Assembly (NCBI GenBank): GCA_030704615.1
Contig: CM060734.1
Coordinates: forward strand, 8,866,001-8,930,000
From: Takakia lepidozioides
Taxonomy: Eukaryota > Plantae > Bryophyta
Length of the DNA stretch: 64,000 bases
Direction of reading: 5' to 3'
The notes below the pieces were generated by a model, which saw nothing but the letters and a program-made list of their open reading frames with translations, was not told where the DNA came from and did no database searches. A program made the translations under genes and the position numbers. The stretch's first letter is position 1. Each line of letters opens with the position of its first letter. Of the stretch, positions 5,811 through 63,900 are shown piece by piece.

Positions 5811-6656
5811 CATTCGCTTCAGTTCCTTTGAATGCGCAGGCATGAAAAGCAGTTATGTGTGCTCTTCATGTGGAAATGGGGTCAGGTAGAATGGTGTGAG
5901 TTGACGTTCACCGTTTTTCCAACCGACCAAGGGGGGGGGGGGAAGAAAGAATTCTTTTTTCTTTTTTGTAGGTGGGGGAGGCTGTCGCCTGGCCCAAGGC
6001 ATGTACTACCTGGAGAATTGCATTCCCTGGTGCTTCCTCCAAACCTGTGTCCCATGCTACTGTGTCTAGGACCTACTATGAGAGTAATAATTCCAAATTG
6101 GAATTGTTGTCTTGCTGGGTGAACTGTTGCTGGCCCTGTGTCACCTGCACCACTTGCTGCTGCTGTGAGGCTATGGCTTCTACCTCCCTTGCTTGTTGTG
6201 CGATCTCTGCAGGTGTTGCCTGCTGAACCTCCGTGTTGGCAGGTGTAGTCTCCATCAGGGATGCTTCGTTGGCCTGCTGCTCGTTTATGTTATAAAATCT
6301 TCTGGTTGTTGATTCTCTCCTTCTCTTTGCAGTGTAGAATCGGCCGTGGAGGTGAACAGTTCTTCCGCCATTGCGCTCGTCGTACCATCGTCTATTCGGG
6401 CCCTCTTTGCAAGTCCGCATTCTTCCTGCAATGGCTGTTCTTCCTCTTCCTGCCCTGCGGCTGTCTCACTTCCATCTTCCTCCAATGTTTCTGCTCGTTG
6501 CATGATTCCCAAAGTGGTATGTTCTTCTGGTATCAAGTGCACCATATGTCGGATCATTTGCAGAAGTATGGGAGTCACCATGGTTACAGTCGACTTGTTC
6601 TTCTTCTTCGTCAGTCGGGTCAATTATTGGATCAGCCTCTTCAACAAGAAGCCTAC

Positions 6657-12600: not shown

Positions 12601-13151
12601 GCGGGAATTCCCTTGGTAGTTGGCAGTCCGGAACAGCTCCCCACTCTTTGGTCGCTTTCCGGCTCGCTCGCTTACTCACTAGTTTTTGGTCACCAACGGG
12701 CTTGCACCGTTCTCGAGGTGACTACTCCCTATACTTCTGTAGTTGTCCGCGGGGGGTTTCACAACCAGCCATGCCATTTTATGGCGAACCACCACGAAAA
12801 CCCTCGACTCCCGGTGATGAGTTGCGGTGAGTCTTGGCCCACTCACCACGGCCCCTATGGACCGTGATGAGTCCCAAGACTCCCCACGACTCCCACCACG
12901 AGGTCTCCGCCCCCATGGTGAGTCCTATGCCACCCCCACTAAGTCCCGCTAAGCTACCACCACCCCTTGTGGAGCCACCCCACCGCAACCCGGTGTGCAG
13001 GGCTCCACCTAGTGAGCGCCTCCGCTTCCCTGAGTGCCTTGGGCACTCAAGGGTGCTTCAGCCCCCCATACCTATCGCTGCCGCTGCCCCCACCACAGGG
13101 GCAGCCCCTCATGTGTCCCGACCCCCTGCCCTCAAGGCAAAGGGCCGCGAC
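6657..13151 (-). mobile_element. Galadriel-like chromovirus LTR retrotransposon, copy E1
   Basis: LTRs 6657-~7370 and 12433-13151 (TGTCGCG...CGCGAC). PBS-Met TGGTATCAGAGC at 12430-12419. gag (KPKEPGTFEG..WLLELEQYF), protease LVDTGASH, RT YIDD, RNaseH HTDASDFAIGG, integrase SMDF/DRDPKF, chromodomain EYEVEAIL..EYLVKWKGY. About 440 bp of gag is deleted at ~11780, and the 3' LTR/PPT junction is deleted at ~7370. Confidence 0.95.
8265..12330 (-). pseudogene. gag-pol of E1 (frameshifted), C-terminal chromodomain
   Basis: ORF pieces 11801-12330, 11137-11775, 10344-10910, 9755-10543, 9319-9672, 8831-9427 and 8265-8864 run in gag-PR-RT-RH-IN-chromo order. Confidence 0.9.
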
Positions 13152-14123
13152 GTCGTACCATCGTCTATTCGGGCCCTCTTTGCAAGTCTGTCTTCTTCCT
13201 GCAATGGCTGTTCTTCCTCTTCCTGCCCTGCGGCTGTCTCACTTCCATCTTCCTCCAATGTTTCTGCTCGTTGCATGATTCCCAAAGTGGTATGTTCTTC
13301 TGGTATCAAGTGCACCATATGTCGGATCATTTGCAGAAGTAGGGGAGTCACCATGGTTACAGTCGACTTGTTCTTCTTCTTCGTCAGTCGGGTCAATTCT
13401 TGGATCAGCATCTTCAACAAGAAGCCTACCCAATTCACGATTTGCCCGTTTGAGGCAAATCAACACCTGCTCTATCAGCTCCTTGGTGCAATAGATGTGG
13501 TTTTGCCTAAGGCAAAGCAAAGTGCTAAGCACTGGGCATATCTTTTTAAAACCTGGATTTTTGCTACGGCTGCATGTGTAGCCCTGATCAGCTTGGTTGA
13601 GATTCTTGAACAGGTCCGTGATTACAAACCTTGGTGGTTTGCTATTATGTGCTGGGACGTCCTGACTGGGAAGATGAGACACCTCCGCCAAGTATTTCTC
13701 GGTCAGTAGGATTCGTGTGTCGCGGACGCTCGTGGATTGAGCGTTGGTGTTGTAGTTCTCCAAGAACTCCCTGCATAGATCGTCGTGCTTGAGGTTCCAA
13801 TCCAGGGTGTTGATGAAATACCGCAAGCCAAGACCGTCCAATGTCTCCTGCATTTCTGCGTCTTGCTCAATCTTCCTCAAAACTAGGCTGATTCTGAAAC
13901 CCACCTGCGCATAAGGACCTGGTGTCTTCCGCTTGGTGCCTGTCATTTCCCTTAGTCTTGTTGTTGCTGTAAGGAATTGGATAACTAATTCATGTATCAA
14001 CAGCAGTATGAAGCACACAGTTGGAAATTGTTTAAACAACAATTTCCAGTTCGTGGAAGAGGAAGTGTGGAGAGCCTTTCTAGGTTTAAGTAGGGGTTCT
14101 GCCCTTTGAGCTTCCACTTGCAC
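13152..14123 (-). pseudogene. Extra ORF downstream of pol (Athila ORF2/'putative plant transposon protein'-like); continues at 6656-6076 beyond E1
   Basis: LDGLGLRYFINTL..DDLCREFLENYN..VRDTRILLTE resembles the 'LVREFYAN..VRG..I' motif of Athila extra ORFs. The Q/E-rich tail lies at 6076-6623. Confidence 0.55.
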
Positions 14124-16928: not shown

Positions 16929-17779
16929 TTCATGAAGAAATAATATCCATCGAGCAACCCTGCCACTAGCTAGTGGTCGATTTGCCAAATGAACCAAAGC
17001 CTGATGATCAACAATAAATCTTAAAGCAGGTTCGCATGGGCTAGGGCAGCACAGGCTATCACAAGTATGGGGTATGACAGCTGTGACCCTCATTACTGAG
17101 TGGTCACAGCTCCACACAGCCTCACACAGGTCACAGGGTGCTGTTATCACAAGAAGGGAACATGAATGTGGTATGTCATCAATATAGGGAACAACAGTAC
17201 AGATCATGCTGACGTAACCGACGGTTAGAGTAGTAACAGTTAGTTAGACGGTTAGAACAGCTTGCAGGTAGAAAAGAGGGACTAGCTACGGAAGGCGGAT
17301 CATGACTTCTGGGGCGCATGGACTGGGAGTACACAGGGCGAGTATGCGGAGGAGGAGAGAGACGATGGAGGGAGCTTGATACTTGCAAGCTCTAGAGATG
17401 ATACTATAGAGTAGATTTAGATACACCATGGCTTTGGCCTGACGCTTGTTAGTTATAAATACAATACATACTTCATACTCACACTGTGTAGAGAGACCTG
17501 AGAGAAGCTGTGGAATGTGTACCTAAATATAAGATGGGACTTGGCAGATCATAGAAGCAATCTGATACATAACTCTAGGCTGTAAGGTATCTTAAATAAA
17601 CCATGAATGCAAGAAGGAATAGAAATATGAAAGCACCTCCATGATACGCTAGGTGTAGGTCATGACTGATTGTTCTGAGCGGGCTGAGTACTTAGAGATT
17701 TCTAACTCTTCTACCTTAGAGTTCCCACCCCGGATAGCTAAGGGATGGGTGAGTAAAAGCTGCTCAACAAAGACTTAAT

Positions 17780-18965
17780 GCTCATGCCGATCACATTTCC
17801 CGGTTGTCAGAGAAAACAGGAGACGAGCCTATTGACGATGATTTTCCGGATGCGTTCTTGTTCTCCATAGAGACATTTCCTCCATGGTATGAGCACATTG
17901 CTCAATATTTGAGCACACTAGAATTTCCCCCGGGGATGGATCGACACGCACGAAGAAGGCTTCGATTGCGCAGCATGAAGTATGCCCTGGTGGGAGGGCA
18001 GCTTTATAGAAGGGGATTGGATGGACTCTTAAGGCGATGCGTCACCCCAGAGGAGGCTCCCCAGATTTTAGAGTCGGCTCATGACAGTATATGCGGAGGG
18101 CACTTTGCAGGGCGGCTCACGGTGTAGAAAATTTTGAGGGCAGGATACTACTGGCCCTCCATGTTCAAGGATACGCACATGCATGTGCAAAAATGCGATT
18201 TGTGTCAAAGGTACGCAAAACGGGATAACAGGCTTGGAATGCCGTTAGTTCATACACTCCCTCTTGCTCCGTTTGAGAAGTGGGGGATCGACTATGTAGG
18301 GGGAGTGCACCATGCATCGAGTCAGCAAAATTGCTACATCATCGTAGCCACCAAGTATCTAACCAAGTGGGCAGAGGCCAAGGCGGTTAAGAAGGCCAAT
18401 CGATGCACAGGTGGAATGCGCCAATCAGACATTGTGCAACATCCTCTCCAAAACAATTCGGGAGCACAAACGGGATTGGGATACCAAGTTGATCTCGGCC
18501 TTGTGGGCGTTTCGCACGACCCATAAAGTAACTACTCGACACACCCCCTTTCCATTGGTTTATGGGGTGGAGTCCATCTTGCCGATCGAGACAAAAATTC
18601 CATCTTTACGACTGGCCATCACCGAAAGATTGGCAACATCCGAGTCATTGAAAGAGCGACTTGAGATGTTGGATGGATTGGATGAACTCCGGCAAGCGGC
18701 AGCTCAACACATAGAAGCGGTACAACGAAGGAGGAAAGCTCGCTTCGATCTTAAGCACAAAAAGAGGATTTTTGATCCAAGAGATCTGGTACTGTTATTC
18801 GACAGTCGGAACGAGGAGTTCAAGGCCAAGTTCGACTCATATTGGGTGGGACCATACTTAGTCAAGACAGTCTTTGACAATGAATCTTTACAATTGGAGA
18901 CACTATGAGGAGTGGAGTTACCCAACCTGGTAAACGGTGTCCGATGCAAGCACTACTACATGTGA
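17780..18965 (+). pseudogene. Integrase remnant of a second non-chromovirus Gypsy element
   Basis: ADHISRL..PWYEHIAQYL..LYRRGLDGLLRRCV..HDSICGGHF..AGYYWPSM..CDLCQR..FEKWGIDYVG..TKWAEA..ALWAFRTT..TPFPLVYG..WVGPY. Contains stops and an internal deletion. Confidence 0.85.
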
Positions 18966-19433
18966 GTTTTCCTTAACCAATGAAACCCCCCCGTCTTAAG
19001 GGAGAAATCTTTAGGATTTCGTCCTGGTTTTTTCGGAAGGAAATGTTGGTATTTCCTATCCATTGACTCATTGGTTATTGGAGTTCATAACGAGCTGGAG
19101 TGCGGGGAATTTAAATTGCAATAATCCAATGAAACTTCTCCACTGGGAAGCAGTCAGTAGGGCTCTTACCCAGGTAGGTTATTGAACACCCTTTCTTGGA
19201 GTTTCAAGAGTAGATCTTGGGATGCGTGGCAACGCAGTTGCATTAAAGAGGTGATTTGTTCCCCAGTGTGATTTTTGGGTAGTTATTAGAATCCACAATG
19301 ACATACCTTGGGATGCGGGGCACATAGAGTGCAGTAATCTAACCCACGTCGTAGAATAAAAACTTGTTTGATATGACATAAGCTATGAAAGCTATGACCA
19401 TCCAATTGCCAAGTAGAAGACTTCATACATCTT

Positions 19434-19621
19434 TGTCGTGCGCATACATATCGCTACACAACTACATCGCTGTCCAAAACCACACAACACATGTGCACGC
19501 CACACACTAGTATACCACTAGTCCACCACTAGTCCAGCCACTAGTCCAACCACTAGGCTACAACTAGTCAGTCACTAGGCTGCCACTATGCTGCCCACTA
19601 TGGTAGTCACTAGTCCACACA
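19434..19621 (-). repeat. Probable 3' LTR of M1 with ~10-bp CCACTAG tandem repeats
   Basis: Starts with TG immediately after the PPT. About 10 CCACTAG-like units at 19500-19615. The distal boundary is uncertain. Confidence 0.55.
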
Positions 19622-19880
19622 ATCGCCCCCCTAGCTGGTGCTTAGGTCCCTCTAAGTCCAGGTAGCCACAAGATGTGATAGTGACCATAGCCTCACTAAG
19701 TCCTCCACCACTGTCCCTACTACACTCAAACTCGATAGATCAAGAGGCCGGGTGCAAGAGTTGCCCCATCGTTAGTCGCCGTCTTGCAACCTATGAATTT
19801 GAGCCTGGGATTTCGTATTGATGACTATAGAGCTTGGCCTCCCATGTCTTGTTAGCTGCCTCTAGTCATGTCCACTGCCA

Positions 19881-20535
19881 CTATCCCAAGTAGTGTGGAC
19901 ATAACCAATCTCCATCAGGAACCCTCTCAAAGGTGGTGTCAAGCATCCCATATGCCAACCCTCTTGAGCATCGATCACACACCAGCATGGTGGCTGCCCC
20001 TTTGGCAGACCCACAGAGCATGCACCTCAAACCTGCAGGTACCACTGCCAAGTTTGGGTCAACTTTGCCATCGACATTGGGAAGGCGACATGGCGCACAA
20101 TTACGCATATGTTCTTTCCAAGTCATGCCATCCCGACCCTCCAAGATCAGGACTCCTGATGGCAACACCTCTCGAACACTCAGAATAACACGCCCTGTAG
20201 TGACATCCAGGGTCGTAGGAGCAGTCTGCTGCAAATAAACATAGTCACCAGGGCTAGACCTCCAAACCAGGACGATATCCTCCACCACGTATAGTGGCAT
20301 ACCTCAACGTATCACGGTGTTGTGCAATGGCAAGGTTCTCAAAAGCCATGGGCATGACTTTCTTGAACAACTCTGCACGCTGATCACATGCACGTACCCA
20401 CACGTCCGGATTGTCAAGGTTAAGGATTTGAGCATTGTCCCTACGAATGGCTGCAGGCAAATCCGGCTCTCGGCCAAAGAGAAGGAAATATGGTGAGAAA
20501 GAGGCAAGTGATGCTTGTTTGCTGAACCTGTAGTC
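19881..20535 (-). pseudogene. Integrase C-terminus plus PHD zinc finger of M1
   Basis: YRFSKQASLASFSPYFLLFGREP and PGDYVYLQ. Then CMLC..MLVCDRC..(WHMGC, recovered across a frameshift)..VPDGDWLCP, a C4HC3 PHD pattern whose final Cys position reads Tyr here. Confidence 0.85.
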
Positions 20536-21500
20536 CATGCTCCAATCCGTATGTAGCTGAAAGGGACGCCCCCTGATAGGTCGTCTCAGGATAGGCGCCG
20601 AGGTCAACCTCGCCTTGAGCTCTTGAAAAGCTCGTTCCTGATCTTCCCACTGCACTCCTGGTCCACCTTGGTCAGCTTGGTTAGAGCCTTTGCAATGGCA
20701 CTAAATCCCTTGACAAACCGTCTATAATAGTTTGTCAACCCCATGAAAGCTCGAACTCAACTCACATCCGTAGGGCGTGGAATTTGTGCAATGGCCTCTA
20801 TCTTTGTCTGCTGTACCCCCAATCCTCGAGGATATATCATGTGACCCAGATACTCAATCTGGTTGTGGAAAAACTTGCACTTCCCCGGATGCAACTTCAA
20901 TCCGGCGCTCTCAAGCGCTCCAATACCACCTGAAGGTGTCTCTCATGCTCCTTCACCGTAGCACTAAAGATGATGATGTCATCTATGTAGCACCGAGCAA
21001 AGTCTACCCCTGCTAGAATCTTATCCATGACTCTCTGAAATTCTGTAGGAGCATTCTTAAGCCCAAATGGTAAGAACCGCCACTGATATAGGCAATCTTT
21101 GCCGTGCTCATTGATCCCCCATAATGTCATCTTCTGCTTGTCCGCCTCCTTGATTGGCAACTGGTGATATCCGGATCGTAAATCTAAAGTGCTAAAGACC
21201 TTAGCATGCCCGATGGCATCAAAGATCTCCTCTGGTGTTGGCATGGCATACTTATTGGACTTGGTCTGACGATTTACAGGCCGGTAATCACCGCACATAC
21301 GTCTCTCCGTCCAATTGCCATAGACATCCTTCTTGGCTGGCATCACTGTGGCTGAAGCATACTCTCCACCAGAGAGCTCCACCAAACCTGCCTCCCAGAG
21401 ATCTTGAGTCCTCATCTAAATCAAAGACCTCTCCATGTCACTGTATCTATAGGATCTCCGAAAGATTGGCGTGTCAGTGGCCAACTCTTTATATCTCTTG
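20535..21500 (-). pseudogene. Reverse transcriptase and RNaseH start of M1
   Basis: [48 protein letters not shown]. Confidence 0.93.
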
Positions 21501-21989
21501 ACCCTTCAGTGCTCCCAAGTCCTTCAAACTGAAGGCAAAGCAATTCCTGTAAGCCCTCAGGAACCGCCGTATACGTCGTCTCTCTCCTCCGGTGACAATG
21601 GGTCCAATGTCAGGCTCCCAATTGTCCTCCGTAACTGCAACCTTAAGTCCAGTGGGCTTAGAGGTAGAGGACGCGTCCAATGGTTGCTATGTTGCAACCT
21701 CTTGAGCAGTACTCCCTACCTGCTCAGTCAATGACAAGGCCTCATCCTGCCCCATCATCTCATCCTCGAGGACTTCCTCAACCGAGAAAAATCCCCAACC
21801 TCATCCATCACGCCACCTTGGCTGCCAACTCCCTCTGAACCTCGAGCACCTCCCACGTGTGCCATGGATGCCTACACCCCGTGGTCCTCTCATGCTCGCC
21901 CCCACTCACTGCCTGTACCGTCTCGGTAGGCAGAGAGACCATCGAGGGAAGTGTACTTTGCACTCTGCGTTGCTCAGCCATAGCCAAGC

Positions 21990-22940
21990 TGATAATCCAG
22001 GTCAAGCAATTGAGATCCATTGCTTGCCCCAACACCTGACGACGTGATGCCTCAGAAAGAGACGCACCGCGTGGTACCAGTGGTAAAACCCATTGCCCGC
22101 TCACGCTCGTCAGCATTAGGCTCCACTAACTGCTGCAACTGAGCATCCCACAGGAGGCCAGGTCCACTATCCCGGAAAACATGCGATCCTGGGAAGCTGA
22201 GCAGTGTAGGTAATGCTGCTCGTGGTTGACCCACCTTGTTGACCACTGCCAAAGGCGAACGGTCATCGTGTCTCACACGCTGAGACTGCCTCCCTGTGTC
22301 CAAAATGCTATCCACTGTGAGGTGTGCTGGCCGCTGCACCCCATCAAATGCACGCTTGAGCAGTGCGGGTGGCATCAAGTTAGTCCACCATAGCCGTGGA
22401 CGATGAGCCCGTGACCCCACTGTAGCTGCATCTAGCAACACTGCTGACCCAAGCCACGACCGGACTTGATGCACACTGGCCATCACCCTGGCCCGAGAAT
22501 CGCCCATCAGTGGCACATTCTCCAAGATGTATGCTGGAGATACAGCTTGATGAAGCTGCAAGTGGCGCAAAACCCGCACCATCTCCCAAAACAGACCCGA
22601 CCTCGAGTCTCGCAATCCATTGCCATGCCCGGCTGATGAATGCCCTTGGCAGGGCCAACCTGCCACTACCAGATCAATGGAGCCAACCCGCTCCAAATCC
22701 TGCGCCCCCAGCAACGAAATGTCTGCTGGCAAGGCCTGCTGATATCCACGAACTGCAGACACCGGCAACAACTCAGGGTACTGCTGCACCAACTGAGCAA
22801 CATGGAAAGTGAAACGCGTCGTGCAGTCGTCCCTCTCCACATACAGGTAACGCCGAACTCGTACACCTGCTGTAACACAACAGCCAATCCGGTGCTGATC
22901 CCGCCAAACAAGTCCAGAAGACAAATGCCTTCATCCGGAT
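21990..22940 (-). pseudogene. C5 cytosine DNA methyltransferase domain (DNMT3-like) within pol of M1
   Basis: Motif I LLDLFGGISTGL, II RYLYVE, IV DLVVAGWPCQ, VI YILENV, VIII AHRPRLWWTNL, IX ERERAMGF, X RRQVLGQAMD. Canonical order, with frameshifts near 22875 and 22055. Confidence 0.92.
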
Positions 22941-23234
22941 ACTGCCACACAATAGGTGTGGTGTCCAATGGAGACAACTGAGGTGGTCCTGGTGCAATCC
23001 CCGCACTCTCCTCCTCTCCTGATGGTACAAAAGCCTCCACCCAGGCTTGTTGCACCCGTCGATCAGCAACCCGCTGCAAATCCTTGCTCGTGCCCCAATG
23101 GAGTCTGAGCAACCATGGCAGGCAACTCCGCCATACCATACATGTCATCCTGCTCTCCTGGAGGTGGTCATCCTCTGAATGAGCGTTGCCCTCAAGCAAC
23201 TCTCTAGGCCAACTCACTGCAGCTGTGAATGCTG

Positions 23235-23680
23235 CTAGTGTCGGCATCTTTTCGCTGGGCAACCGCAACTCCTCCTATGAACGTCACAGGAGCTGCACAC
23301 GCCGCCCTCCCCTGACTGCCATCCAGGCCTATAGGAAGCTGACTCCTCCCAAAAATCCAGGGTGAAGCCCATGGGGTACAACACTGCCCCACCAACCAGG
23401 ACATCGTATGAGACCGCGTCTGTCACAATGGCCTTGGCTCGCATCACTGAGCCATCTGTAGGGTGATCCGGCCGTAGTCTAGCCATGTCATGCCCCGAGC
23501 CTGCTCCGATCCTCCCAGAGACGTCTGTATCTGGAAAGGACAAGGCTCCATATCCGCCTCCGTGAGGCCCAAGCCTGCAATAGCAGCTCTGCCCAGCATC
23601 AATGGCTGAGCTCCCGAGTCCAACAAGACCCGCAGTGGCCGGTACCTCTTGCCTGCCGGTCCACTCAAACAGAAAATGCA
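23235..23680 (-). pseudogene. Aspartic protease of M1
   Basis: RPLRVLLDSGAQPLMLG ... YDVLVGGAVL. Confidence 0.85.
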
Positions 23681-24399
23681 TCCTGGTTGTCTAACATGAC
23701 AACTCCAGGTGTCACCATGGCGCGCTCAATGGCTGGCCTAGCTGGCAGCTCCATCAACCTGGCAGCTGCAGCTTGCCATGGGCGCCGCCGTGGCAGTCTT
23801 GACCCTCAAATCCGAGGATCCTCCGGCACTACACCTCCCACTATCTCCGCAGAAGATGAAGTAACCTCCCCACTCTCACAGAGTGTAGCTGCCAGCCTGA
23901 ACACCTCAGCTGGTCTTACCCCCGGCGTCGCAATCATGGTAGCCGAGAACAATGGAGCCTGGCACACAGATGTGGCCGCTCCTAGCAGCACACTAGCTGC
24001 CGTAGCCTTGGCAACACTAGGTAGTGGTGCTGCCCGTGTAGCTCTCCCCAATGGCATAGTAACCTCCGCCTCGGTAACAGTCGGGCGAGAACTAGGTGCC
24101 ATGGATGGCGTCGACACTGTCTCCGCCAATGTGAATGACTGAGGAAGCCTAGCCTGACGGCTTGCCTCCCACGCTGTGGATCCAACTCCACCTCTGCACC
24201 TCGTGGCTCAGGAACTCGTGCTGCTCCTCGAGTCACGCTGCAGCAGACTCCACCTGCACTAGTGGTAGTGCTGCTCCACACATGAATCCATGCCTCCCAT
24301 ATCTCCTCCCTCAGGAGCAGGAGGTGGACCATCCGGCCTTGGAGCCGGTACCACCCGAGCTGTAGCCATGGCAGCGAGCCTCTGCTCTAGCTGCTGAAG

Positions 24400-25814
24400 C
24401 CGGTTGGCCATGCCTTGGTCAACACCCTGACCTCCGCGTCCTTGGCCATGTTGAGCTTGCCCTTGGCCTGCACCTCGTGCCTGGCCCCTCGTCCTCTCTG
24501 GGCTGCTCCACCTCGCCCCCGGCCACCATTGTTCCCTTGGAACTGGCCTGGGCGCAACTCAGGATGCAAACCATAACACTGGGCCTCTCCATGCCCGTGC
24601 TTGCCACAATGCCCACACTGCAACTGTGCAGGCTGTGCATGTGCCGGCCCTTTGCCTCCCTCTGGGCAATCCTTCTTGACATGGGGTCCTCCACATGTCC
24701 AACACACCACCTCCGCCCGTTGTTGGCCTGCAAATGAAGGAGAGACCCCTGCATCTGAGGTCCTCTCTGCCCTTCCCTGAGCTTCACCTGGCCCCCTTGT
24801 TGCCTTGAGCACGTTGAGGTAGTGGTTGGCTAGGAGCACCACTACCCCGTGGTGTCTCCTTAGCAAATCCCACCATGACCACTCGTTCCTCCACCATTGA
24901 GCTCTATCCGCTCTGCCAGCAAAAACACATTTGCGGGTTGGGCCGCTTGTAGGAGAGTTGCATCCCGCACCCTTCTCCTCAGCTCCTTGTCCAATATCCC
25001 ATACCAGAATTGGACTGCCTGAGCTTCCGTAACCCCTTGGGTTACATTTATCAAGCGCCTCATGCGAGTGAAAGCCTCCCTCAAGCTCTCAGTAGGCTTC
25101 CGTTGGAACTCTTGCAAGCTCCGCAACTTCTCTGTCCTCACCCCTTGGTAGTTCCCTCTCAACTCTTCGAAGAACTCCACAACAGGGTTGAAGGCAGGCA
25201 CGGGTACTAGTGCTGGTGCGGTAGTGGCTTGGGTGGACGTCGTAGCTACTGTACCACCAGTCCCACTGCTGCTTGCTGAAGCTGTGCAGCGGCAGGTGTA
25301 GCCACTGCCCTCGTGGCTCTAGTGCCCCTAGTGATGGAGACATAGTCGGGTGACCAGTACATCCTCCACTCCTCGATCTCAACCTCATGCCCCCGCCTGA
25401 ACTCATGGTAATCATCCATAGGCGGCCCCTCAAGGTGCTGAAACAGCCCTTCCATGCCATGAAAGGCGTAAATAGTTGTGGATTGCGCATTTGCTGCAAA
25501 TCACACCAACTATCAAACTCTTGGATAAAATCATCCAACTCGATGGTGCCCACCGCCCCAGAGTACCTTCGTGGCCCCTTGGTAGCTCCATACATCTCCT
25601 CCATTGTGTCCCACAACAATGGCAAGGAAACAACTTGCACCGCCGGTGTGAGTCCTCCTGATTCACAATCCGAATCAGAACCTTCCGTAGAAGACACAGG
25701 AGGTGAAGGTGGCCTAAACCGCACACCTCGTCTCGTGTACCCACTAGTATCGCTAGTGCTCGAACCGGCACTGTCCCAGCAACTAGTGGCACCTCCGTGT
25801 TGACAAACTGTCAC
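24400..25814 (-). pseudogene. gag of M1 with two zinc knuckles
   Basis: RRYSG..LDDFIQEFDSW; LQEFQRKPTESLREAFTRM; CWTCGGPHVKKDC and CGHCGKHGHGEAQC. Confidence 0.8.
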
Positions 25815-26489
25815 TCAACCGGTCATGAACATGTCCCTAACCCCCTCTCCACAAGGTAACCGGGTAGAGAACCTGTTGCGGCTTATGGTTTGGATACTAG
25901 GTTCCTAACATAGCCTACACCTGCACCTGCATCCACCGCAAGCACTCCTATGGTTGGCTGGTCATCACCTCCAACCTCACCACAGGAGAAACAATGATGG
26001 TCTGACTGGTCATCACCCCAGCCTCACCATCGACAGCATGCTCTAGGACTGGCCGGTGATCAAATCCGGACCAATCACCTATAAAAACAAGCGCCCACAC
26101 AAAACTAACATGGCGCACAGTCAAGCATGCAGGTATGGAGGGGATCCAAACACAAGAAATCAGAACGACAACTCCCCCACACCAAAAACAACTCCACGGT
26201 GTTGCTCCTGCAAGGACACCCCAGCCCAAACCCGGACTGACTCTTGCCTCCACCTACGGAAAGGTCTTGGCCTAATGAGAGGGTGGAAAACTACGAGGAA
26301 GAGAAGCTAAAGCAATGCCTAACCCCAGCATGCCCTCATCCCAACACTCTTCCTCTCCTCTCTTCCCTCACTTGCATGACCATGGGAATATCATGAAGAT
26401 ACTCCTCAAACCGCCCTCCACGAGCTTCAAAATTCGGCCTTCAAGACCACATGCCAGTCCTTAGGCAGTCCACCAGTGCCTCCACGAGT

Positions 26490-26875
26490 CAGCACAGGCC
26501 GCACAGGTCAACACGGGCACCACAGACCAGCACAGGCCCACACACACTGGTCACAGCCATTGGCCACAGCACAGGTTCACAGCCCCAAAGGGTCACAGTC
26601 ACAGCCTGTCACAGCCCTACACAGGTCACAGTCACATTCCACAGGAGGCCACCACAGCCTGTCACAGTCACACAACACACAGTCACATGTCACACACAGG
26701 GTTTCACAGCCCGTCACAGGGCACAGTCACAGGGTTCACACATCACAGCCCCAAAGGCCACCACAGCCTGTTCACACAGCCTGTCACAGCCCCTCACAGC
26801 ACAGCCCGTCACAGCCCCCCACAGGCACAGCCTGGTCACAGCACACACCACATGGTCACAGTTTCACAGCCCCAT
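26490..26875. repeat. CACAG-based low-complexity tandem array in the M1 leader
   Basis: Dozens of (GT)CACAG units. A similar patch occurs at 17045-17145. Confidence 0.8.
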
Positions 26876-27319
26876 CCATGGCCACTCATGGCAGTTTAGC
26901 CATTTCTCCAAGGGGTTTAGCCACGCCAAGCTAGGGTTTGTGTCTCTTGGACTCTAGGCTTCTTTGCACCGAGCTATGGCGGCTGTGAGAAATCAGCAAG
27001 GTATTCTTGCTCTTTGGCCCCCACACACCACCAATAGTAGCCTAATTCCAAAGGAAGATGTTTGCAACAAACTAAGTGCACAAGCTTCTTTTAACTCCCA
27101 AACACGCCATTGCTATGGCGACTAACCAAACATGGCTGACTTCCAGCCCTTGTAGGCACTCATTCACTTGCCATAGCATGCCCTTCCTAATCCAGCCCCT
27201 GCACCTGCTGCTTCAAGAGTTGTGCTCCAGCTTGAAGTTGAAACCCCAACTCACATATGCCCTACAAGTGCTTTTATTTCACCCCAAGTGGAAACCAGCC
27301 CTAGCCCTTCCGTTCTAGC

Positions 27320-27700
27320 TCTCTAAAGCTTGAAAACAAGAGCCTCAATGGGCTGAAGGCATGCTCCACACATGCCCCACTCTCACCATAAGAGAATCAG
27401 CCTTTGCTTCATTTCTTGCACCCACAAACCTGAAAATACAAGCTTCAGCGGGCTGAAAGCATGCTCCACACATGCCTACAGGGAAACCAGCCCCTTCCTT
27501 TCTTTCTTGCACTCCCAAACCTGAAAGTACAAGCCTTCAACAGGCTGAAAGCATGCTCCACACATGCATTGCCCTCACATAAGGGAAGTCAGCCCTTCCT
27601 CTTCCTTGCTTGCCCTCCAAGCTTGAAGATGGAAGCTTCAATGAGCTGAATACATGCTCCACACATGCAACCTCTTCACACAAGAGTATCAGCCCCCTAT
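27320..27700. repeat. ~95-100-bp tandem repeat (4 units) in the M1 leader
   Basis: GCTGAAAGCATGCTCCACACATGC-like motif at about 27352, 27452, 27544 and 27644. Confidence 0.8.
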
Positions 27701-28726
27701 CTTGGCTCCTTGGCTCCTTGATGCTCTCTAAGACAAGACTAAGCACTCCACAGCCTTTGCCAAGCTCCTGAAACCCTAAGGCTTACATTTCCAGCCACAA
27801 GACACTCCTCTTGTGGTGCAAGAGCTCTTCTTCCAAGCTCTGAAACCCTAGGTGCACATTCCATGGCCTTGCCGCACCTCTTAGCTCCTGTTCCAGCCCT
27901 GCTCTTGCCATGACAAGAGCCCTCTCAATGCTGAAGCTCGAGATTGAAACCCAATCTCAACATACTCCACAAAGTGCACTGATTTGCCCCAAGCCAAATC
28001 AGCCCTTTCGCTTGGTCTTGCAATCCTTCACACAATGAAAGCTCGCATTCCCAAGTCCAGTTCTCAGCTTTGCCACCAAAGCCACTATAACCTGCTCTTG
28101 ACTGGTCCTCTTCCCAATCGTGCTTGCTCATGCATGTACACAATCTGAAACCATCAAGGTGCTCTGGAATTACCTGCAGCATGGTGCTTTCATCTCTGAA
28201 GCTGAAGATCGAATGCCAAGGTCTACCACCTCGTAACCCACATCGCCTCCGCTTCTAACAACAAGAGCTCCACGGTGCTCCTTGCATAACAACCTGGTTT
28301 CTCTCATTCTCAAGCAAAAACCACAAGTGCTACAACTAACTCGTATCTGGCACTCACAGATACGAGCTCATCTTTCTCGAGTGATAAAGAAGAAGAATAC
28401 AAGCACAAGCTCATGCGAACTCACAAAGCTGAAGCATAAACTCATGCATATATAAACTCATCACTCAAATACAAGTCAAGCCAAGTGCACCCCACGCCAT
28501 GGGGAATCCACACTACGGCGCCATAGCTAGGCGCGGTGAGGCTCAACTCGAGAAAGATGAGCCTCCTGCGCTTGCCGTGAAGATAACCACTCCAAGGCCT
28601 AAATCTGCCTTGACCCCTGGATTGACACTTGGGCCAATCCCAAATGTCAATATGTAAAAGCTAGCTATTTCCTAGCTAGTTTCACACTAGTGGTAAAATA
28701 ACTTAACATCTTCGTTACTAATCACG

Positions 28727-31757: not shown

Positions 31758-33497
31758 TCAATGATTTCTGGAATCCCGGCGGAGGAGTTTGTGCAGCTCG
31801 TTCACGCTCAACGCTGGTGCATGAACAAAGTCATCAATAGTTAGGTTCATCCTCAACCTCTTCAGGTAAATGTAATACAGATGCTTGCACGGATAATACT
31901 TTGTCCCCTTCTTTGCTTCCATCAACGAGAAGTCCGTACAATTGCAGGTCGGCTCCACTCCGATTGTAATTGTGTATACGTCGTCGCGTACAGCTGAGCC
32001 GGCCGTTGCCATCCGATAAACACGCCCAAGGCTGGGTGCGGGTACGTCCACGGAGCTCTGAATAGTGCAAGCCATCCCAAGAACATTGGCAATCCGAGTC
32101 TCATTCAACTTGTTGGGAGGGTATCGTCTCTTCACTCTTCTGAATTGCATTGTGGGATGTGCAGAATTGTCCAATCCGTCTCTACTGGACCGAGCAGTCT
32201 GCAATGGCTGGGTTTGAGGAACTGGAAATGGGTGGGCCGGGACGTCTGTGCGTTGCACCATTCGAAATCCTGCTGCAGAAAGAGCATCCGCCTCATTCTG
32301 AGAGAGGTTGCAACCCGGTGCAACATGCCAGACACCCGGAGGCTCCGGCATTCCTTGAATCCCGTACTTGGGCTTGCCAAATACACAAGTCATTATGTCG
32401 TGCCTACAGAACCAAAACGTCTGCGTTGTGGCGTGAGAAAATCTGGGAGTCAAAAATCTGTCGCTGAAACAAGGTGCAGGTACAGCACCGTGTTGGTTCT
32501 TCCGAATCATCTCACCACAGCGTGCTCTCGTATCCACCCGGATGGCGCAGCACTTCCCTCGAAATGCCGGCAATGTCCTTGCAACATCACGGGACCACGA
32601 GGGAGCGTGCAAATATTCTTGTCAGCTCACCATGAATCCTCTTCTCCGTCAGGTGCCTTGTCAAGTCTTCGTCTCACTGGATGGGTGTGAACATCTCCTT
32701 CCAAATGTTGGCCTCTTCGAAGCAATGGCGTGTCTTGAAGGCCCTCTCGCAAGGCTGCCGCCCACTTCCAAGGATTCTTTGATCTGGAGGCAGTCCGCAT
32801 CAGCATTTCCTGCCTGTCCGGCCCCAAGCCCCACTGTTTCCCTTTCAAGAACTCGTTGTACCTGCATTACTGCATAATTGACCTCGCAATGTCCTCCGTT
32901 GTGGCAGTGAGGATGTCCACCAGATGCGCCGCAGAGGAGGCACGCCAGGAAGAATGTACTGATTCGGCCATGTTTGTTGTCGGCATGTCGGTGTCGGAGT
33001 CCAGACACATTTCCTGCACATGCACATACTGCGGTTACAAGCTAGTTACAAATAATAACTAGCATAATATTTAACGGGACGCGAATTCGTCCAACTCACC
33101 TCCCGCATATAGTCGCCGAACTGGAGGAAACGATAATGTCACCATGCTAGCCAACTAACCATTGCTCCCTCGTCTGATTTCTTTACAGCACCTGACAACG
33201 ATCTGCCTCAGTCCCGTGTCCTGGACCTACTTCCATGAATGTAATCATATCCACATCGTCGCTTCACCTCCAGAATGGAGTGCATATCCGATTCTCTGTT
33301 TGCAGGAGACAATGTGGTTTCGGACATTTTGTGAACAGACGTGGGACACTGACTCCAGCAATGTCTCCATTTCCTTCTCATCGAGACGAACTCTGTCGGA
33401 GCCATCTTCCGACATAATTCTGGCTAATGTCATCTTATGGGCGGTCTGCAGCTGTATCTGTTTGGGTTTGGCACCAGGTCTCAACTTAACCTCCTCC
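31758..33497 (-). pseudogene. SWIM zinc-finger gene, probably intron-containing and transposon-borne, 5'-truncated by M2
   Basis: YTITIGVEPTCNCTDF...PCKHLYYIY is a SWIM CxC..CxH motif. Upstream coding-like segments at 32627-33008 and 33245-33484. Confidence 0.6.
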
Positions 33498-36300
33498 TGC
33501 CGGTTCGAGCACTAGCGATACTAGTGGGTACACGAAACGAGGTGTGCGGTTTAGGCCACCTTCACCTCTTGTGTCTTCTACGGAATGTGCTGATTCGGAT
33601 TGTGAATCAGGAGGACTCACACCAGCGGTGCAAGTTGTTTCCTTGCCATTGTTGTGGGACACAATAGAGAAGATGTATGGAGCTACCAAGGGGCCACGTA
33701 GGTACTCTGGGGCGGTGGGCTCCATCGAGTTGGATGACTTTATCCAAGAGTTTGATAGTTGGTGCGACTTGCAGCAAATGCGCAATCCACAACTGTTTAC
33801 GCCTTTTATGGCATGGAAGGGGCTGTTTCAGCACCTTGAGGGGCCGCCCATGGATGATTACCATGAGTTCAGGTGGAGGCATGAGGTTGAGATCGAGGAG
33901 TGGAGGATGTACTGGTCACCCGACTATGTCTCCATCACTAGGGGCACTAGATCCATGAGGGCAGTGACTACACCTGCAGCTGCATTAGCAGCTTCAACAA
34001 GCACCAGTGGGACTAGTGGTACCGTAGCTACGACGTCCACCCAAGCCACTGCCGCACCAGCACCAGTGCCCGTGCCTGGCTTCAACCCTGTTGTGGAGTT
34101 CCTCGAAGAGTTGAGAGGGAACTACCAAGGGGTGAGGACAGAGAAGTTGCGGAGCTTGCAAGAGTTCCAATGAAAGCCTACTGAGAGCTTGAGGGAGGCT
34201 TTCACTCGCATGAGGCGCTTGATTAATGTAACCCAAGGGGTTACGGAAGCTCAGGCAGTCCAATTCTGGTATGGGATATTGGACAAGGAGCTGAGGAGAA
34301 AGGTGCGAGATGCAACTCTCCTACAAGCGGCCCAACCCACCTTAGCAAATGTGTTTTGCTGGCCGGATAGAGCTCATACATGGTGGAGGAACGAGTGGTC
34401 ATGGTGGGATTTGCTAAGGAGACACCACGGGGTAGTGGTGCTCCTAGCCAACCACTACCTCAACATGCTCAAGGCAACAGGGAGCCTCAGGTGAAGCCCA
34501 AGGAAGGACAGAGACGACCTCAGAAGCAGGGGTCTCTCCCTTCATTTGCAGGCCAACAACGGGTGGATGTGGTGTGTTGGACATGTGGAGGACCCCATAT
34601 CAAGAAGGAATGCCCAGAGAACGGCAAAGGGTTGGCTCAGGTACAGCCTACACAGTTGCAGTGTGGGCATTGCGGCAAGTTTGGGCACGGAGAGGCCCAG
34701 TGTTATGACATGCATCCTGAGTTGTGGCCAGGCCAATTCCAACTGAACAATGGTGGCCGGGGCGAGGTGGAGCAGCTCAGAGAGGACGAGGTGGCCAGGC
34801 ACGAGGTGCAGGCCAAGGGCAAGCTCAGCATGACCAGGGACGAGGAGGTCAGGGTGCTGACCAAGGCATGGCCAACCGGCTTCAGCAGCTAGAGCAGCGG
34901 CTTGCTGCCATGGCCACAGCTCAGGTGGTACCAGCTCCAAGGCCTGAGGGTCCACCTCCTGCTCCTAAGGGAGGAGATATGGGAGGCATGGGATTCATGT
35001 GGGGAGGAACACTACCACTAGTGCAGGTGGAGTCTGCTGTAGCCGTGACTCGAGGAGCAGCACGAGTTCCTGAGCCACGAGGTGCGGAGGTGGAGTTGGA
35101 TCCACAGTGTGGGGAGCAAGCCATCAGGCTAGGCTGCTTCAATCATTCACATTGGCGGAGACAGTGTCGATGCCATCCATGGTACCTAGTTCTCGCCCGA
35201 CTGCTACCGAGGTGGAGATTACTGTGCCATTGGGGAGAGCCACACGGGCAGCACCACTACCTGCTGCCAAGGCTACGGCAGCTAGTGTACTACTGGGGGC
35301 GGCCACATCTGTATGTCAGGCTCCATTGTTCTCGGCTACCATGATTGCGACGCCAGGGGTGCGACCAGCTGCAGTGTTTAGACTGGCAGCTACACTCTGT
35401 GAGAGTGGGGAGGTCACTTCATCTTCTGCGGAGATAGTGGAAGATGTAGTGGCGGAGGGATCCTCAGAGTTGAGGGTCAAGACTGCCACGGCGGCGCCAT
35501 GACAAGCTGCAGCTGCCAGGTTGGCGGAGCTGCCATCTAGGCCAGCCATTGAGCGCGCCATGTTAAACAACCAGGATGACATTTTCTATTTGAGTGGACC
35601 GGCAGGCAAGAGATAATGGCCACTGCGAGTCTTGTTGGACTCAGGAGCTCAACCATTGATGCTGGGCAGAGCTGCTATTGCAGGCTTGGGCCTCACGGAG
35701 GCGGACATGGAGCCTTGTCCTTTCTAGATACAAACATCTTTGGGAGGATTGGAGCAGGCTCGGGGCATGACACGACGTGAGTTGGCTATCAGACTACAGC
35801 CGGATCATCCTGCAGATGGCTCAGTGATGCGAGCCAAGGCCATTGTGGTAGACGCGGGCTCGTACGATGTCCTTGTTGGTGGGGCAGTGTTGTACCCCAT
35901 GGGCTTCACCCTGGATTTTTGGGAGGAGTCAGCTTCCTATAGGCCTGGATGGCAGTCAGGGGAGGGTCGGCGTGTGCAGCTCCCTGTGACGTTCATAGGA
36001 GGAGTTGCGGTTGCCCAACAAGGCAAGATGCCGACACTAGCAGCATTCACAGCTGTAGTGACTTGGCTTGGAGAGTTGCTAAAGGGCAACGCTCATTCAG
36101 AGGATGACATACCTCCAGGAGAGCAGGATGACATGTATGGTATGGCGGAGTTGCCTGCCATGGTTGCTCAGACTCCATTGTGGGGCACGAGCAAGGATTT
36201 GTAGCGAGTGGTTGATCGATGGGTGCAACAAGCCTAGGTAGAGGCTTTTATACCATCAGGAGAGGAGGAGAGTGCGGGGATTTCACCAGGACCACCTCAG

Positions 36301-37102
36301 TTGTCTCCATTGGACACCACACCTATTGTGTGGCAGTATCCGGATGAAGGCATTTGCCTTCTGGACTTGTTTGGCGGGATCAGCACCGGATTGGCTGCTG
36401 TGCTACATGCAGGTGTACGAGGTTGGTGTTACTTGTATGTGGAGAGGGATGAGACTGCACGACGCGTCTCACTTTGCCATGTTGCTCAGTTGGTGCAGCA
36501 GTACACTGAGTTGTTGCCGGTGTCTGCGGTTCGTGGATATCAGCAGGCATTACTAGCAGACATTTCCTTGCTGGGGGTGCAAGATTTGGAGCGGGTTGGC
36601 TCCATCCACTTGGTAGTGGCAGGTTGGCCTTGCCAAGGGTATTCATCAGCTGGACATGATAATGGATTGCGAGACTCGAGGTCGGGTCTGTTTTGGGAGA
36701 TGGTGCGGGTTTTGCGCCACTTACAGCTTCATCAAGCTGTAACTCCAGCATATATCTTGGAGAATGTGCCACTGTTGGGCGATTCTCGGGCCAGGGTGAT
36801 GGCTAGTGTGCATCAAGTCGGGTCGTGGCTTGGGTCAGCAGTGTTGCTGGATGCAGCTGCAGTGGGGTCACAGGCTCATCGTCCACGGTTATGGTGGACC
36901 AACTTGATGCCACCACCACTACTCAAGCGTGCATATGATGGGGTGCAACGGCCAACACACCTGACAATGGACAACATCTTGGACACGGGGAGGCAGTCTC
37001 AGCGTGTGAGACATGATGACCGTTCGCCTTTGGCAGTGGTCAACAAGGTGGGTCAACCACGAGCAACACTACCGACACTGCTCAACTTCCCAGGATCGCA
37101 TG
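36301..37102 (+). pseudogene. C5 DNA methyltransferase domain of M2 (motifs I-VIII in one frame; IX-X lost)
   Basis: LLDLFGGISTGL, LVVAGWPCQGYS, YILENV and AHRPRLWWTNL lie in one uninterrupted ORF, cut by an LTR at 37103. Confidence 0.92.
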
Positions 37103-57752: not shown

Positions 57753-58649
57753 GAGTGGGGGCGAGCAGGTGAGGACCACGGGGTGCAGACATCCATGGTA
57801 CACGTGGGAGGTGCTCGAGGTTCAGAGGGAGTTGGCAGCCAAGGCGGCGGTGATGGATGAGGTTGGGGATTTTTCTCGGGTTGAGGAAGTCCTCGAGGAT
57901 GAGATGATGGGGCAGGCTGAGGCCTTGTCATTGACTGAGCAGGCATGGAGTACTGCCCAAGAGGTACTGGACGCGTCCTCTACCTCTAAGCCCACTAGAC
58001 TTTAAGGTTGCAGTTACGGAGGACAATTGGGAGCCTGACATTGGACCCATTGTCACCGGAGGAGAGAGACGACGTATACGGTGGTTCCTGAGGGCTTACA
58101 GGAATTGCTTTGCATTCAGTTTGAAGGACTTGGGAGCACTGAAGGGTCAAGAGATTCGTATTGAGTTGGCCATTGACACGCCAATCTTTCGGAGACCCTA
58201 TAGATACAGTGACATGGAGAGGTCTTTGATTCAGATGAGGACTCAAGATATCTGGGAGGCTGGTTTGGTGGAGCTCTCTGGTGGAGAGTATGCTTCAGCC
58301 ACAGTGATGCCAGCCAAGAAGGATGTCTATGGCAATTGGACGGAGAGACGTATGTGCGGTGATTACCGGTCTGTAAATCGTCAGACCAAGTCTGATAAGT
58401 ATGCCATGCCCACACCGGAGGAGATCTTTGATGCCATTGGGCATGCTAAGGTCTTTAGGATCGCATCACAGTGGCAACCACAGATGAAGGCTGGAATTCC
58501 ACTCTGAGGGATCCAGGGAAGAGTCCAGTCCACATATGGGGATCAGTACATCAGAGGTATTTAAGGTGCTTTATTCATTGAATGGAAAAAATGTGTGTTC
58601 TGGTGCTTTACAATATATATATTCTCACACAATTGGCCCCTCTGTGCAG

Positions 58650-60913: not shown

Positions 60914-63900
60914 CTAGTGCTGAGAAGGCAACTGTGGTCTTTTCTCCAGCATCTCGTAATGCAGCACAAAGTTCTCCTGAGGGCACCCACATCATGCCAA
61001 GTCACTACCCTCCCCGTATAATTCATTTTCACCCCTCAAACTTGATTTCTATACCTGGTAATGGACTGACATGCCCAGTACATCTGGAAGCTTCAGTTTT
61101 GAAATGCAGAACTTGAACGAGACAAGACAACAGAACTACATGGGCACCGTGAGACACCTCAATCTGACATATTGATGGAGAGGTGCAAATCAGCACAAAA
61201 TCAGTGACAAAAATGAAGCCACCACAATATCCAGACATTGATGGAAATCCAGAGGGTGCTGTGTACCCCCCCCCACAGTTGCTGCAGATAGCCCTCAGAG
61301 AACCTTGAAGTATGGCAGCAAAGGTGGGAGGGAAAAAGGTAGTTGATACACCATGAGTGAAAACCAGAGAAGTGTGAAAGCATAACAGGGAGCATACCTT
61401 GCGCCCTGATTCCCATGTACTGTGATCAAAAAAGTAGAAGGAGCCCCGCTCGTATGTGTTTGTCTTCACTGTTGGTTCCCCATTGGGAACACGAGTTAGC
61501 CACTGCTTGTGTTCTTTATGATAAAACCAGCCTCTGTTACACCTGCAGTGCACAACAAGGATACCATCTTGACCACCAACTTTCAAGAACTCATAACCCA
61601 CCCCTACATAGAATACAGATATATCGTAAGAGCACCCCCTCCACACACCCCCCCACCTTGCTGAATTGCAGTAAATGGATAATCATACACAGAACCTACA
61701 AAAGATTAGTTGGTGAGGGAGAGCACACTCTAGGAGAAACCCAGAAACTCGTCCATGGTGAGGGAAAGCAGCTGCTAAGAAATTCACAGAGAAAGGTTGC
61801 TACTTACAATTCATCAGCGGCATACAGTTGCGCCTCATCATTAGGCATGCTGCACGGAACCAGCAGCAGATGACAAACCCTTAGATAACCAACTGAGGTC
61901 TTATGTCAATGATCCCTCCCCTATTTTCCTCCCCTAAGGAAAAGAGTCTTTTGCAATGAGCCAGAAAGATTCCTGGCGGCCAAACTTACCCCTATAAATA
62001 TTCACAAACAAAAGATTGAATATCAAGACAAACCAAAGCAATTTTAGGTGTCCAGAGAATGATTATTCCCTGGTGAGCAGACCACTGCCACATCACGACG
62101 GAAAGACATTACTGTAATCTCCACCAAAAGACTGGGAACCAAAAATATTTGAAGCATAGAAGAATGCCGCTAGACTAAAAGCAGGCGATAAGGATCATAG
62201 TACCCAATTTGTACCTGTAGAAAATGTAGAACAGAGTATCTTGCTGAAACTTAGTGAAATAGCCAGGCTGTAGATACACCACACAAGAACCCCAATTAGA
62301 AGTGATACATTTTTGTGCCCAAAAACATCCTGAATTTAAGCTCAAAATAGAACATGCTTTAATGGACAAAGGAAAAAAACCATGAGTTTTTCGCGAAATG
62401 CAGAGAAACTACATAAGCAGCCTTTCGAAAAATCTGTCAGACGTTCTCATGTTGTACTTCCGTTTTCGACAGCAAAACTCCAAGCAGCCACTCCAACCGC
62501 AAACCGGTTTTTGTTTGATAAATCTTTGATTTACAATAACTCCGTAAGATCTCTCCAGGCTATGCTTTAAAGTCCCACTGTGCTTGCGTAACCAGTTCAA
62601 GTCCCAGGGGATACAATCACAGCACGATCTCTTCATTGCTTTGCAAGTTGATAGAGAACCTTACATGAATAAATAAAACCACTAAATGCTCAAAGATAAT
62701 CTACTTTATGCCAGGGCCACATTTCAAAAAGGTTGACTGATGAAGGGCATACCTGCAATCGGGGGGCTTGTTGGACATAGCACTGAGGTAGCGTGAACTC
62801 GGGCTCACCCCTGGTGGGGCCTTCAGCCCATGGCGATGCAAAGGTTTTGTACAAGTTTTCTCTTGAGTTGAGGTTAAGTCCTAAAGTGGTGAGATCAGTC
62901 CCCAAGGCTAGTGTTGTCAGGTCAGGGTCACTCATCCTTATTACACTTAACAAACCTAGCAATCCAAACCGGTCTGGTGATGCTGCCACCCCTCCCTGCT
63001 GCAGGGCCTTCAACGACTCTCTGGCAGACTGCCCCAGTTGCTGCTGCTCATGACCAGCCCCTCCTACTCTCAACTGTGCTCGATGGTAATGATGCACTAG
63101 GTCATATGATCCCAACCCTGCTGGCCCCGTAACCCCTCCACCTGATCGACGGACTTGTCCTCCCCCAGCCCCGGGTGGTCCTACTGTCTGTACCTGCCAT
63201 TCCATTTGCAACATGGAATTTAGGATTCTGATGAATATACCAATACACGACATGGATTGCAAATTCATAACCCCCATCTCACAAAGACGTGAAGTGACTT
63301 GAAAAGCACCAACACTAAGACGTACCATGCACGATATGGGCCATTGTTGACCAGACATCATTGAAGCTAATGACTAAAGATTAAAAAAAGAACCAAACAA
63401 AAAATGAGACCTGGCCCTGTTTGACCACCCCCTCTAAATGAACTCAAGAAGGGCACCAGAGTATTAGGAATATATGCTAATGTAACCACTCCTTTATCTG
63501 CACCAGAATAAGATTGCTTTTAGCTTTGTCACTAATATATATTGAGATGACTTGGCAGTAACCACAAAGAAAAGTGGCTCTTACTGAGGCTGGTTTCCGC
63601 CGGAGTATTTTGCTCAGGAACGAACCTCAAGCAGAACATTTTGGTTGGTCCAAGCTGGGATACCATAGAGCTTCTCAAGGTCTGCATTGACTGTGACAAA
63701 TTGATGTGTATGAATGTTTAATACATCAACACATAGTAGCTTTCTTACCTGAGAGTGGTAAGAAGCTGACAGGCCATGTGATGATGGGAAAGAGTCGGTG
63801 ACGCTGGCATGTAAGTGCTGCACGTCAGAGGCGTTCATGGAGGCCATCGATCCCGAGGCCACCATGCCCACCGACTGCGGGACCACCAATTGCCGGTGCA

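Follow-up and report, generated by a model that had tools for sequence, protein, structure and literature searches.

Introduction

The closest described system to the element analyzed here is KnitGypsy-Dnmt3, a charophyte Gypsy-DNMT3 element of Klebsormidium nitens, which combines Ty3/Gypsy domains with an intronless, non-permuted DNMT3-like cytosine methyltransferase (MTase) domain under purifying selection (PMC5890265; here and below, statements on published systems refer to the parts of the cited papers that were available to us). SymbioDIRS-Dnmt3 of Symbiodinium also has a DNMT3-like domain in a retrotransposon, with split repeats in the order A-coding-B-A-B (PMC5890265), and the EpiLTRs of Cymbomonas and Euglena are long terminal repeat (LTR) elements that encode a chromatin-reader domain alongside a cytosine MTase (10.64898/2026.05.21.726589). 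Later papers still attribute Gypsy-DNMT3 to streptophytes, citing or repeating the 2018 work (PMC12344493, 10.64898/2026.05.21.726589), and according to a 2019 opinion paper land plants such as tracheophytes lack methylase-encoding transposons (PMC6338049). Here we analyzed M1, a Ty3/Gypsy element with a DNMT3-like MTase, in a 64,000-nucleotide stretch of Takakia lepidozioides DNA (contig CM060734.1, positions 8,866,001 to 8,930,000; this whole stretch is called the window). The element belongs to a bryophyte branch of the known algal type. Two of its features were not met in the literature searched: a likely readthrough stop that would place the MTase in the Gag product, and ends that suggest integration of joined complementary DNA (cDNA) ends.

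Results and Discussion

The methyltransferase of M1

Joints in host DNA contigs and inspection of the termini showed that M1 spans 19434-28708, and not the 19434..25814 given in a preliminary description of the locus. Its parts, with the two portions of the terminal repeat named A and B, are listed from 5' to 3' of the element.

19434..28708, minus strand: M1, whole element in A-coding-B form, TG...CA termini, no LTR pair (contig joints)
28709..28712: 4-bp target duplication TCTT, 5' side of M1 (termini inspection)
28382..28708, minus strand: terminal repeat part A, 327 bp, TG...CA (contig joints)
28340..28366, minus strand: hairpin directly inside A, at the primer-binding-site position
25815..28339, minus strand: long 5' non-coding region with two tandem-repeat tracts
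24546..25604, minus strand: gag, frameshifted, its zinc knuckle (CGHC) at 24617 (PF03732 match at E 6.5e-4, under the cut-off)
23304..23701, minus strand: aspartic protease, LLDSGA at 23626
21973..22956, minus strand: DNMT3-like C5 cytosine MTase, motifs I-X, two frame breaks
21681..21689, minus strand: in-frame stop TAG then CAA CCA, the readthrough context of tobacco mosaic virus (TMV) type
20802..21620, minus strand: reverse transcriptase (RT; PF00078 E 8e-24), DLRSGYHQ at 21184, YIDD at 20989
20536..20801, minus strand: N-terminal part of RNase H, followed by a deletion of about 1.37 kb
20091..20541, minus strand: integrase C-terminal part
19893..20075, minus strand: PHD finger, the last domain of Pol (PF00628 match at E 2e-4, under the cut-off)
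19623..19632, minus strand: polypurine tract
19434..19622, minus strand: terminal repeat part B, 189 bp, directly after the polypurine tract, ends CACGACA
19430..19433: 4-bp target duplication TCTT, 3' side of M1 (termini inspection)

All the C5-MTase motifs named in the preliminary description were recovered on one strand between LLDSGA (23626) and the RT, with motif I (LDLFGG) at 22917, IV (GWPCQ) at 22660, IX (ERAMGF) at 22102 and X (LGQAM) at 22032, and with VI (LENV) and VIII (HRPR) placed on the same minus strand by six-frame translation. They are spread over three frames and run in the canonical order from I to X, not in the order VI-X then I-V of plant DRM. The M1 frame with motifs IV-IX matched the PF00145 profile with 50.3 bits (E 3e-13, cut-off 22). 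In the PDB, the best sequence match was DNMT3A (E 2e-6), ahead of M.HhaI (E 3e-4).

The fold was modelled on the unbroken MTase domain of a metagenome relative, L041, which is 47-49% identical to the window copies (predicted local distance difference test, pLDDT, 95.9). This model matched DNMT3A and DNMT3B best (Foldseek E 5e-20), with Z scores of 29.3 for DNMT3A (root-mean-square deviation 2.6, 276 aligned), 27.7 for DNMT3B, 25.6 for M.MpeI and 22.7 for M.HhaI. DRM2 aligned only to residues 1-139, as expected since DRM2 is permuted. Taken together, DNMT3A and DNMT3B are the nearest relatives both by sequence and by the fold of the L041 model, as had been proposed from the motif contexts, and we regard it as almost certain that the MTase is a trait of the family and of DNMT3 identity.

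Family, selection and descent

The recurrence of the layout in a second copy, claimed earlier, was borne out by M2, which is 92% identical to M1 over 3.6 kb and lies on the other strand in two pieces.

33498..37102, plus strand: M2, gag-protease-MTase with motifs I-VIII in one frame
57753..58458, plus strand: M2 tail, end of the MTase linker and RT N-terminal part, stop region deleted

A protein search with the M2 MTase domain as query returned 52 proteins with E values of 1e-10 or lower. Among those with a species name, the closest came from Marchantia polymorpha, Calypogeia fissa and Sphagnum, sharing 54-70% identity along the greater part of the domain, and the Marchantia proteins P0003 and P0006 are unbroken gag-protease-MTase proteins; none of the matches carried a Klebsormidium name. 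Many Marchantia gene models (P0003-P0022, P0043), annotated as hypothetical or as DNA methyltransferase, are copies of the element. A search of cluster representatives gave 526 matches at E 1e-10, with species names on 4 of the 20 that were looked up (3 Closterium, 1 Scenedesmus). A metagenome scan, the source of all L-numbered relatives, gave 68 loci (53 once overlaps were merged), many of them with the order gag-protease-MTase-RT-RNase H-integrase-PHD, and in one the integrase segment is identical to that of Sphagnum fallax P0041. The relatives have an rve (DDE) integrase and the gag-protease-RT-RNase H-integrase order of Ty3/Gypsy elements; no match to a tyrosine recombinase was found in them, unlike in DIRS/Ngaro, and no chromodomain in 26 proteins, where a PHD finger was present.

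The ratio of non-synonymous to synonymous substitution rates (dN/dS) between M1 and M2 was 0.25 for the MTase (230 codons) and 0.28 for the RT, and eight further MTase pairs that gave finite values ranged over 0.07-0.40, with 6 of 15 pairs saturated. These values are well below 1, pointing to purifying selection, and no target duplication of its own was found around the MTase. The elements with the MTase before the RT formed one clade both in the MTase tree (40 rows, quick search; Shimodaira-Hasegawa-like approximate likelihood ratio test, SH-aLRT, 98) and in the RT tree (38 rows, FastTree; SH-like 0.91), with the window copies among the bryophyte members and Closterium as the sister group. 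Given this single clade in both trees, the capture of the MTase is old, and the MTase and RT travel together. Two points weigh against this account: the dN/dS filter retains well-aligned codons and so biases the values downwards, and the trees hold element domains only, with host DNMT3, DRM, bacterial and Klebsormidium sequences outside them.

The broken state of both window copies would also fit an MTase that is a selectively neutral piece captured from the host, or the product of a single nested insertion. However, the MTase sits at the same position in dozens of loci and is present from Closterium to mosses and liverworts, and the low dN/dS together with the congruent trees rules this explanation out for all practical purposes. 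The M1 family is thus an old streptophyte Ty3/Gypsy lineage carrying a DNMT3-like MTase.

In a large sister group the same MTase family lies between RNase H and integrase. The order RT-RNase H-DNMT-integrase-PHD was found in 29 of 201 proteins examined (e.g. P0044, P0064, P0065), and one member of the group is named Scenedesmus sp. PABB004. The MTase therefore occupies two positions in related green-lineage elements; no report of a chlorophyte Gypsy-DNMT3 was found in the literature searched.

A conserved stop between MTase and RT

The preliminary description had placed the MTase in pol and envisaged a single open frame from gag to PHD. Instead, a conserved in-frame stop (21689-21687 in M1) splits the MTase from the RT, and the gag-protease-MTase frame ends there, so that the MTase falls in the Gag-protease product. 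In the relatives the stop is followed by a glutamine and lies about 80-115 codons past the MTase core, directly before the RT. A stop with the context CAR-YY-N was present in 38 of the 43 distinct insertions covering the site (29 TAG, 9 TAA), and L051, one of the five exceptions, carries the signal slightly downstream. The context is kept in four lineages with saturated or near-saturated synonymous divergence. M1 reads TAG CAA CCA (21689-21681), and L041 runs from gag to PHD in one frame whose sole stop in 7 kb is TAG CAG TTA, with about 1,360 amino acids before the stop and 1,047 after it. The frames stay in register in 30 of 37 loci, with a gap of 291, 333, 348, 408 or 417 nt, each a multiple of three. 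At least nine named or database proteins end 72-94 amino acids (bryophyte type) or about 110 amino acids (L041 type) after motif X.

The sequence CAR YYA is the readthrough consensus of TMV, with an efficiency of about 10% (PMC2754532). As the stop context matches this consensus, it is highly probable that the RT-RNase H-integrase-PHD part is made by readthrough of the conserved UAG, and a stop of this type behind the MTase suggests that the MTase is likely made at the level of Gag. Some observations speak against this. The Sphagnum-type group, which is the largest, reads CAA CCC and so departs from the consensus at one base, nine of the 43 insertions have TAA at the stop, and in P0040 and P0070 the MTase and RT share one open frame, showing that readthrough would not be universal in the branch.

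The stop could alternatively be bypassed by reinitiation or by splicing, for which the Ogre elements are a parallel. Marchantia and Sphagnum gene models (P0008, P0010, P0016, P0041) do skip the stretch by introns, but these differ in their limits and are mutually inconsistent, the frames are in register with gaps that are multiples of three, and the context fits CAR YYA, making such a bypass improbable compared with readthrough. Several Marchantia gene models skip the stop by apparently false introns. A +1 frameshift at CTT-TAA-G in M2 was also considered and rejected, as M2 is without the stop region and the shift is in no relative.

Permuted ends and integration

Despite its TG...CA termini and the TCTT duplication, M1 has no repeat common to its two ends. 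Two full direct LTRs, one per end, were not found in the family, where the layouts were A-coding-B or A-coding-B-A-B. Host DNA contigs join B to A and A to B (joints at 28708/19434). Among the relatives, L007, L015, L033 and L048 end in B-A-B, L010, L041 and L044 show B-A where the record stops, L025 has a rearranged A-B, and L013, L016, L021, L039 and L057 end at the first B. In all six insertions with both ends (M1, L015, L025, L033, L039 and L047/L048, counted as one) 4-bp duplications were observed at the start of A and at the last B.

The two joints differ in character. At the B|A joint of seven loci stands a fixed palindrome around a spacer of two bases, CA-GC-TG, CA-AT-TG or CA-GT-TG. 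CAGCTG at this joint is also found as CAGTTG, CAACTG and CAATTG (L007, L010, L015, L033, L041, L044, L048 and host contigs), as deamination of CWG sites that carry methylation would produce. In five loci the A|B joint varies, and in L025 it holds 9 nt from just inside the first A (A1). A conserved polypurine tract lies exactly at the start of the first B (B1), and the second (B2) begins at the same base. From the anatomy of both joints and the position of the polypurine tract, the unit between this tract and the primer position reads as B-A, with the integrase ends inside the unit. The simplest interpretation, which we consider fairly probable, is that a linear B-A-coding-B-A cDNA would be end-joined and then cut at the left B|A.

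Starts of the form A-B-A-coding-B count against end-joining, as they were seen in none of 14 distinct 5' ends although a symmetric two-repeat circle predicts them; the cut must then favour the left repeat. This absence is what a route like that of DIRS/Ngaro would give, in which an RNA from A1 to B2 and template switches between the A and B pairs build a circle. The integrase would open the B|A joint newly made in this circle, whereas the A|B joint would be passed on from the parent copy. Such a route accounts for A-coding-B-A-B and A-coding-B as the only forms, and the layout matches that of split-repeat DIRS elements (PMC5890265). However, the polypurine tract conserved exactly at the start of B1, with B2 beginning at the same base, and the variable A|B joint, holding sequence from inside A1 in L025 as end-joined cDNA would, make the DIRS-like route unlikely, and joining of linear cDNA ends the better account.

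Proposed life cycle and function of the MTase

The domain order, the conserved stop with its context, the permuted ends with 4-bp duplications and the purifying selection are direct observations, and the following life cycle is what they suggest. With readthrough at about a tenth, the TMV value, the MTase would be as abundant as Gag and far above the RT, and the protease may release it. The plus strand would start at the polypurine tract, i.e. at the start of B, and the minus strand just inside A, giving a linear cDNA B-A-coding-B-A whose joined ends would form the variable A|B joint. In the left repeat, integrase would then cut the palindrome CA-GC-TG at the B|A joint, and it would insert A-coding-B-A-B, whereas the A-coding-B form could stem from a one-repeat circle or from B-to-B recombination. 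Ahead of insertion or during it, the MTase would methylate CG sites of the cDNA, which would then resemble host chromatin on arrival. We give this combination of a Gag-level DNMT3, readthrough, self-methylation of cDNA in the particle and end-joined integration a probability of roughly 0.55.

Self-methylation of the cDNA, for which we see slightly better than even odds, is a best guess by analogy with dinoflagellate DIRS-DNMT3 domains, which methylate CG de novo in yeast (PMC5890265). Against it, the Klebsormidium domain gave no DNA methylation in yeast, a result its authors call inconclusive (PMC5890265). A point in favour is the observed/expected CG ratio of 0.46-0.52 in M1 and M2 as compared to 0.81-0.85 in a neighbouring MTase-free Gypsy family, but the host gene region is lower still at 0.38, and transitions in M1/M2 are raised at CHG (0.12) as at CG (0.14), as host silencing would give; as evidence the CG depletion is thus weak and not specific.

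An abundant MTase might instead serve as a binding protein or act in trans, its object being host chromatin close to target sites, rival elements or the structure of the particle. A Gag-level frame would yield the enzyme in large excess over what a single cDNA requires, the PHD finger that closes Pol is a chromatin reader, and the inactivity of the Klebsormidium domain in yeast (PMC5890265) fits as well. The catalytic PC, ENV and motif VIII arginines are, on the other hand, conserved, and the related dinoflagellate domains do methylate CG de novo (PMC5890265), which leaves a role in trans as a minority view beside self-methylation. More doubtful than self-methylation itself is the general picture of a green-plant LTR lineage, living in bryophytes, whose DDE integrase normally inserts circular cDNA through a palindrome within the LTR, and whose Gag-level DNMT3, dosed by a leaky stop, methylates the cDNA before insertion.

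If the reading holds, a leaky stop sets the dose of the MTase at capsid level, which earlier MTase-RT fusion models do not predict, and joined-end integration is the main route of a DDE-integrase element. As the family occurs in the genetic model Marchantia polymorpha, for which methylation mutants exist, the question of why retrotransposons carry DNMTs becomes testable. Elements with permuted ends are missed by those LTR finders that ask for two matching LTRs (criteria in PMC6317226), which may be why this family was overlooked.

State of M1, its neighbours and the host

M1 is a dead, decayed copy. Relative to L016 it has about 14 frame changes, which may be decay or assembly error, and a deletion near 20536 that removes about 450 amino acids, i.e. 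most of RNase H and the integrase core. Part A is likely the promoter-bearing part of the repeat, and TATAAA lies within part A of relatives; the hairpin at 28340..28366 is a possible self-priming structure. The tandem-repeat tracts lie at 26380-26957 and 27290-27695, and their repeat number differs in other host copies (contig joints). In the host DNA runs 13,650 and 17,458 contigs covered all 30 bins of M1, a summed depth that gives no copy number, and in two runs presumed to be RNA M1 was covered only by scattered short pieces, a pattern that bears neither way on expression.

M1 lies next to, or inside, the 3' portion of another Gypsy integrase, which is on the plus strand (17753-18966, PF17921 matches). 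M2 is split by a cluster of another Gypsy family (37103-57752), with 272 bp of M2 missing. At least five nested or inverted copies of the MTase-free Gypsy family, with LTRs of about 715 bp that are 91-98% alike, occupy 6657-13151 and 37103-57752, the first of them inside a duplicated stretch of host element (6378-6656, 13151-13429). Fragments flanking M2, at 58560-59600 and 31758-33450, resemble MULE (Mutator-like element)/SWIM-type transposase sequence.

The host was placed by a single exon.

62753..63205, minus strand: host NOT2 exon, used for host placement

This exon has 70-75% identity with moss proteins (Physcomitrium, Ceratodon, Sphagnum); liverwort proteins share 64-70% with it and those of angiosperms about 50%, and the Klebsormidium match covers only 54% of the exon. 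A land-plant host, left conditional in the preliminary description, is thereby supported, and as judged from this exon it is a bryophyte and likely a moss.

Comparison with known systems

No land-plant report, readthrough report or end mechanism for this family was found in the literature searched, with subscription journals and Repbase outside its scope, and the available parts of PMC12344493, 10.1101/363937, PMC6453930, PMC9033089, PMC9985172 and PMC11982613 hold nothing on land-plant DNMT elements. Troyka was rejected as a relative, having CG ends and 3-bp duplications and living in animals (PMC12440569).

The charophyte Gypsy-DNMT3 type named in the preliminary description is indeed the closest known system. 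KnitGypsy-Dnmt3 shares, by its figure legend, the A-coding-B-A-B repeats (PMC5890265) seen here in L007, L015, L033 and L048, with M1 in the short form; its host is an alga, whereas ours is a land plant. Its MTase is, per the authors, in the same open reading frame as the RT and RNase H (PMC5890265). Here the two are in register but split by a conserved stop, and a shared frame was met only in other members of the branch, e.g. P0070. As compared by description only, the short A-coding-B form and the 4-bp duplications are additions of the present work, and the available text of PMC5890265 gives no mechanism for the ends.

SymbioDIRS-Dnmt3 differs by its tyrosine recombinase (PMC5890265), in place of the DDE integrase, TG...CA ends and 4-bp duplications described here. 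The DNMT of the EpiLTRs is sister to DNMT4, and they carry DAM and a chromodomain (10.64898/2026.05.21.726589), whereas the present elements have a DNMT3-like MTase and a PHD finger, with no DAM seen. The stop and six-base context of the TMV-type signal UAG-CAR-YYA (PMC2754532) are identical in M1 and three other lineages; the difference is that the putative readthrough here would separate gag-protease-MTase from the RT. Finally, in human immunodeficiency virus type 1 (HIV-1; PMC4372172) and foamy virus (PMC1180852) the integrase likewise cleaves a circle at a palindromic CA..TG joint, after which the circle is integrated. In those viruses the cut falls at the LTR-LTR joint, as part of a side route from which normal proviruses result, whereas in the M1 family the palindrome lies within the repeat and every insertion seen is permuted.

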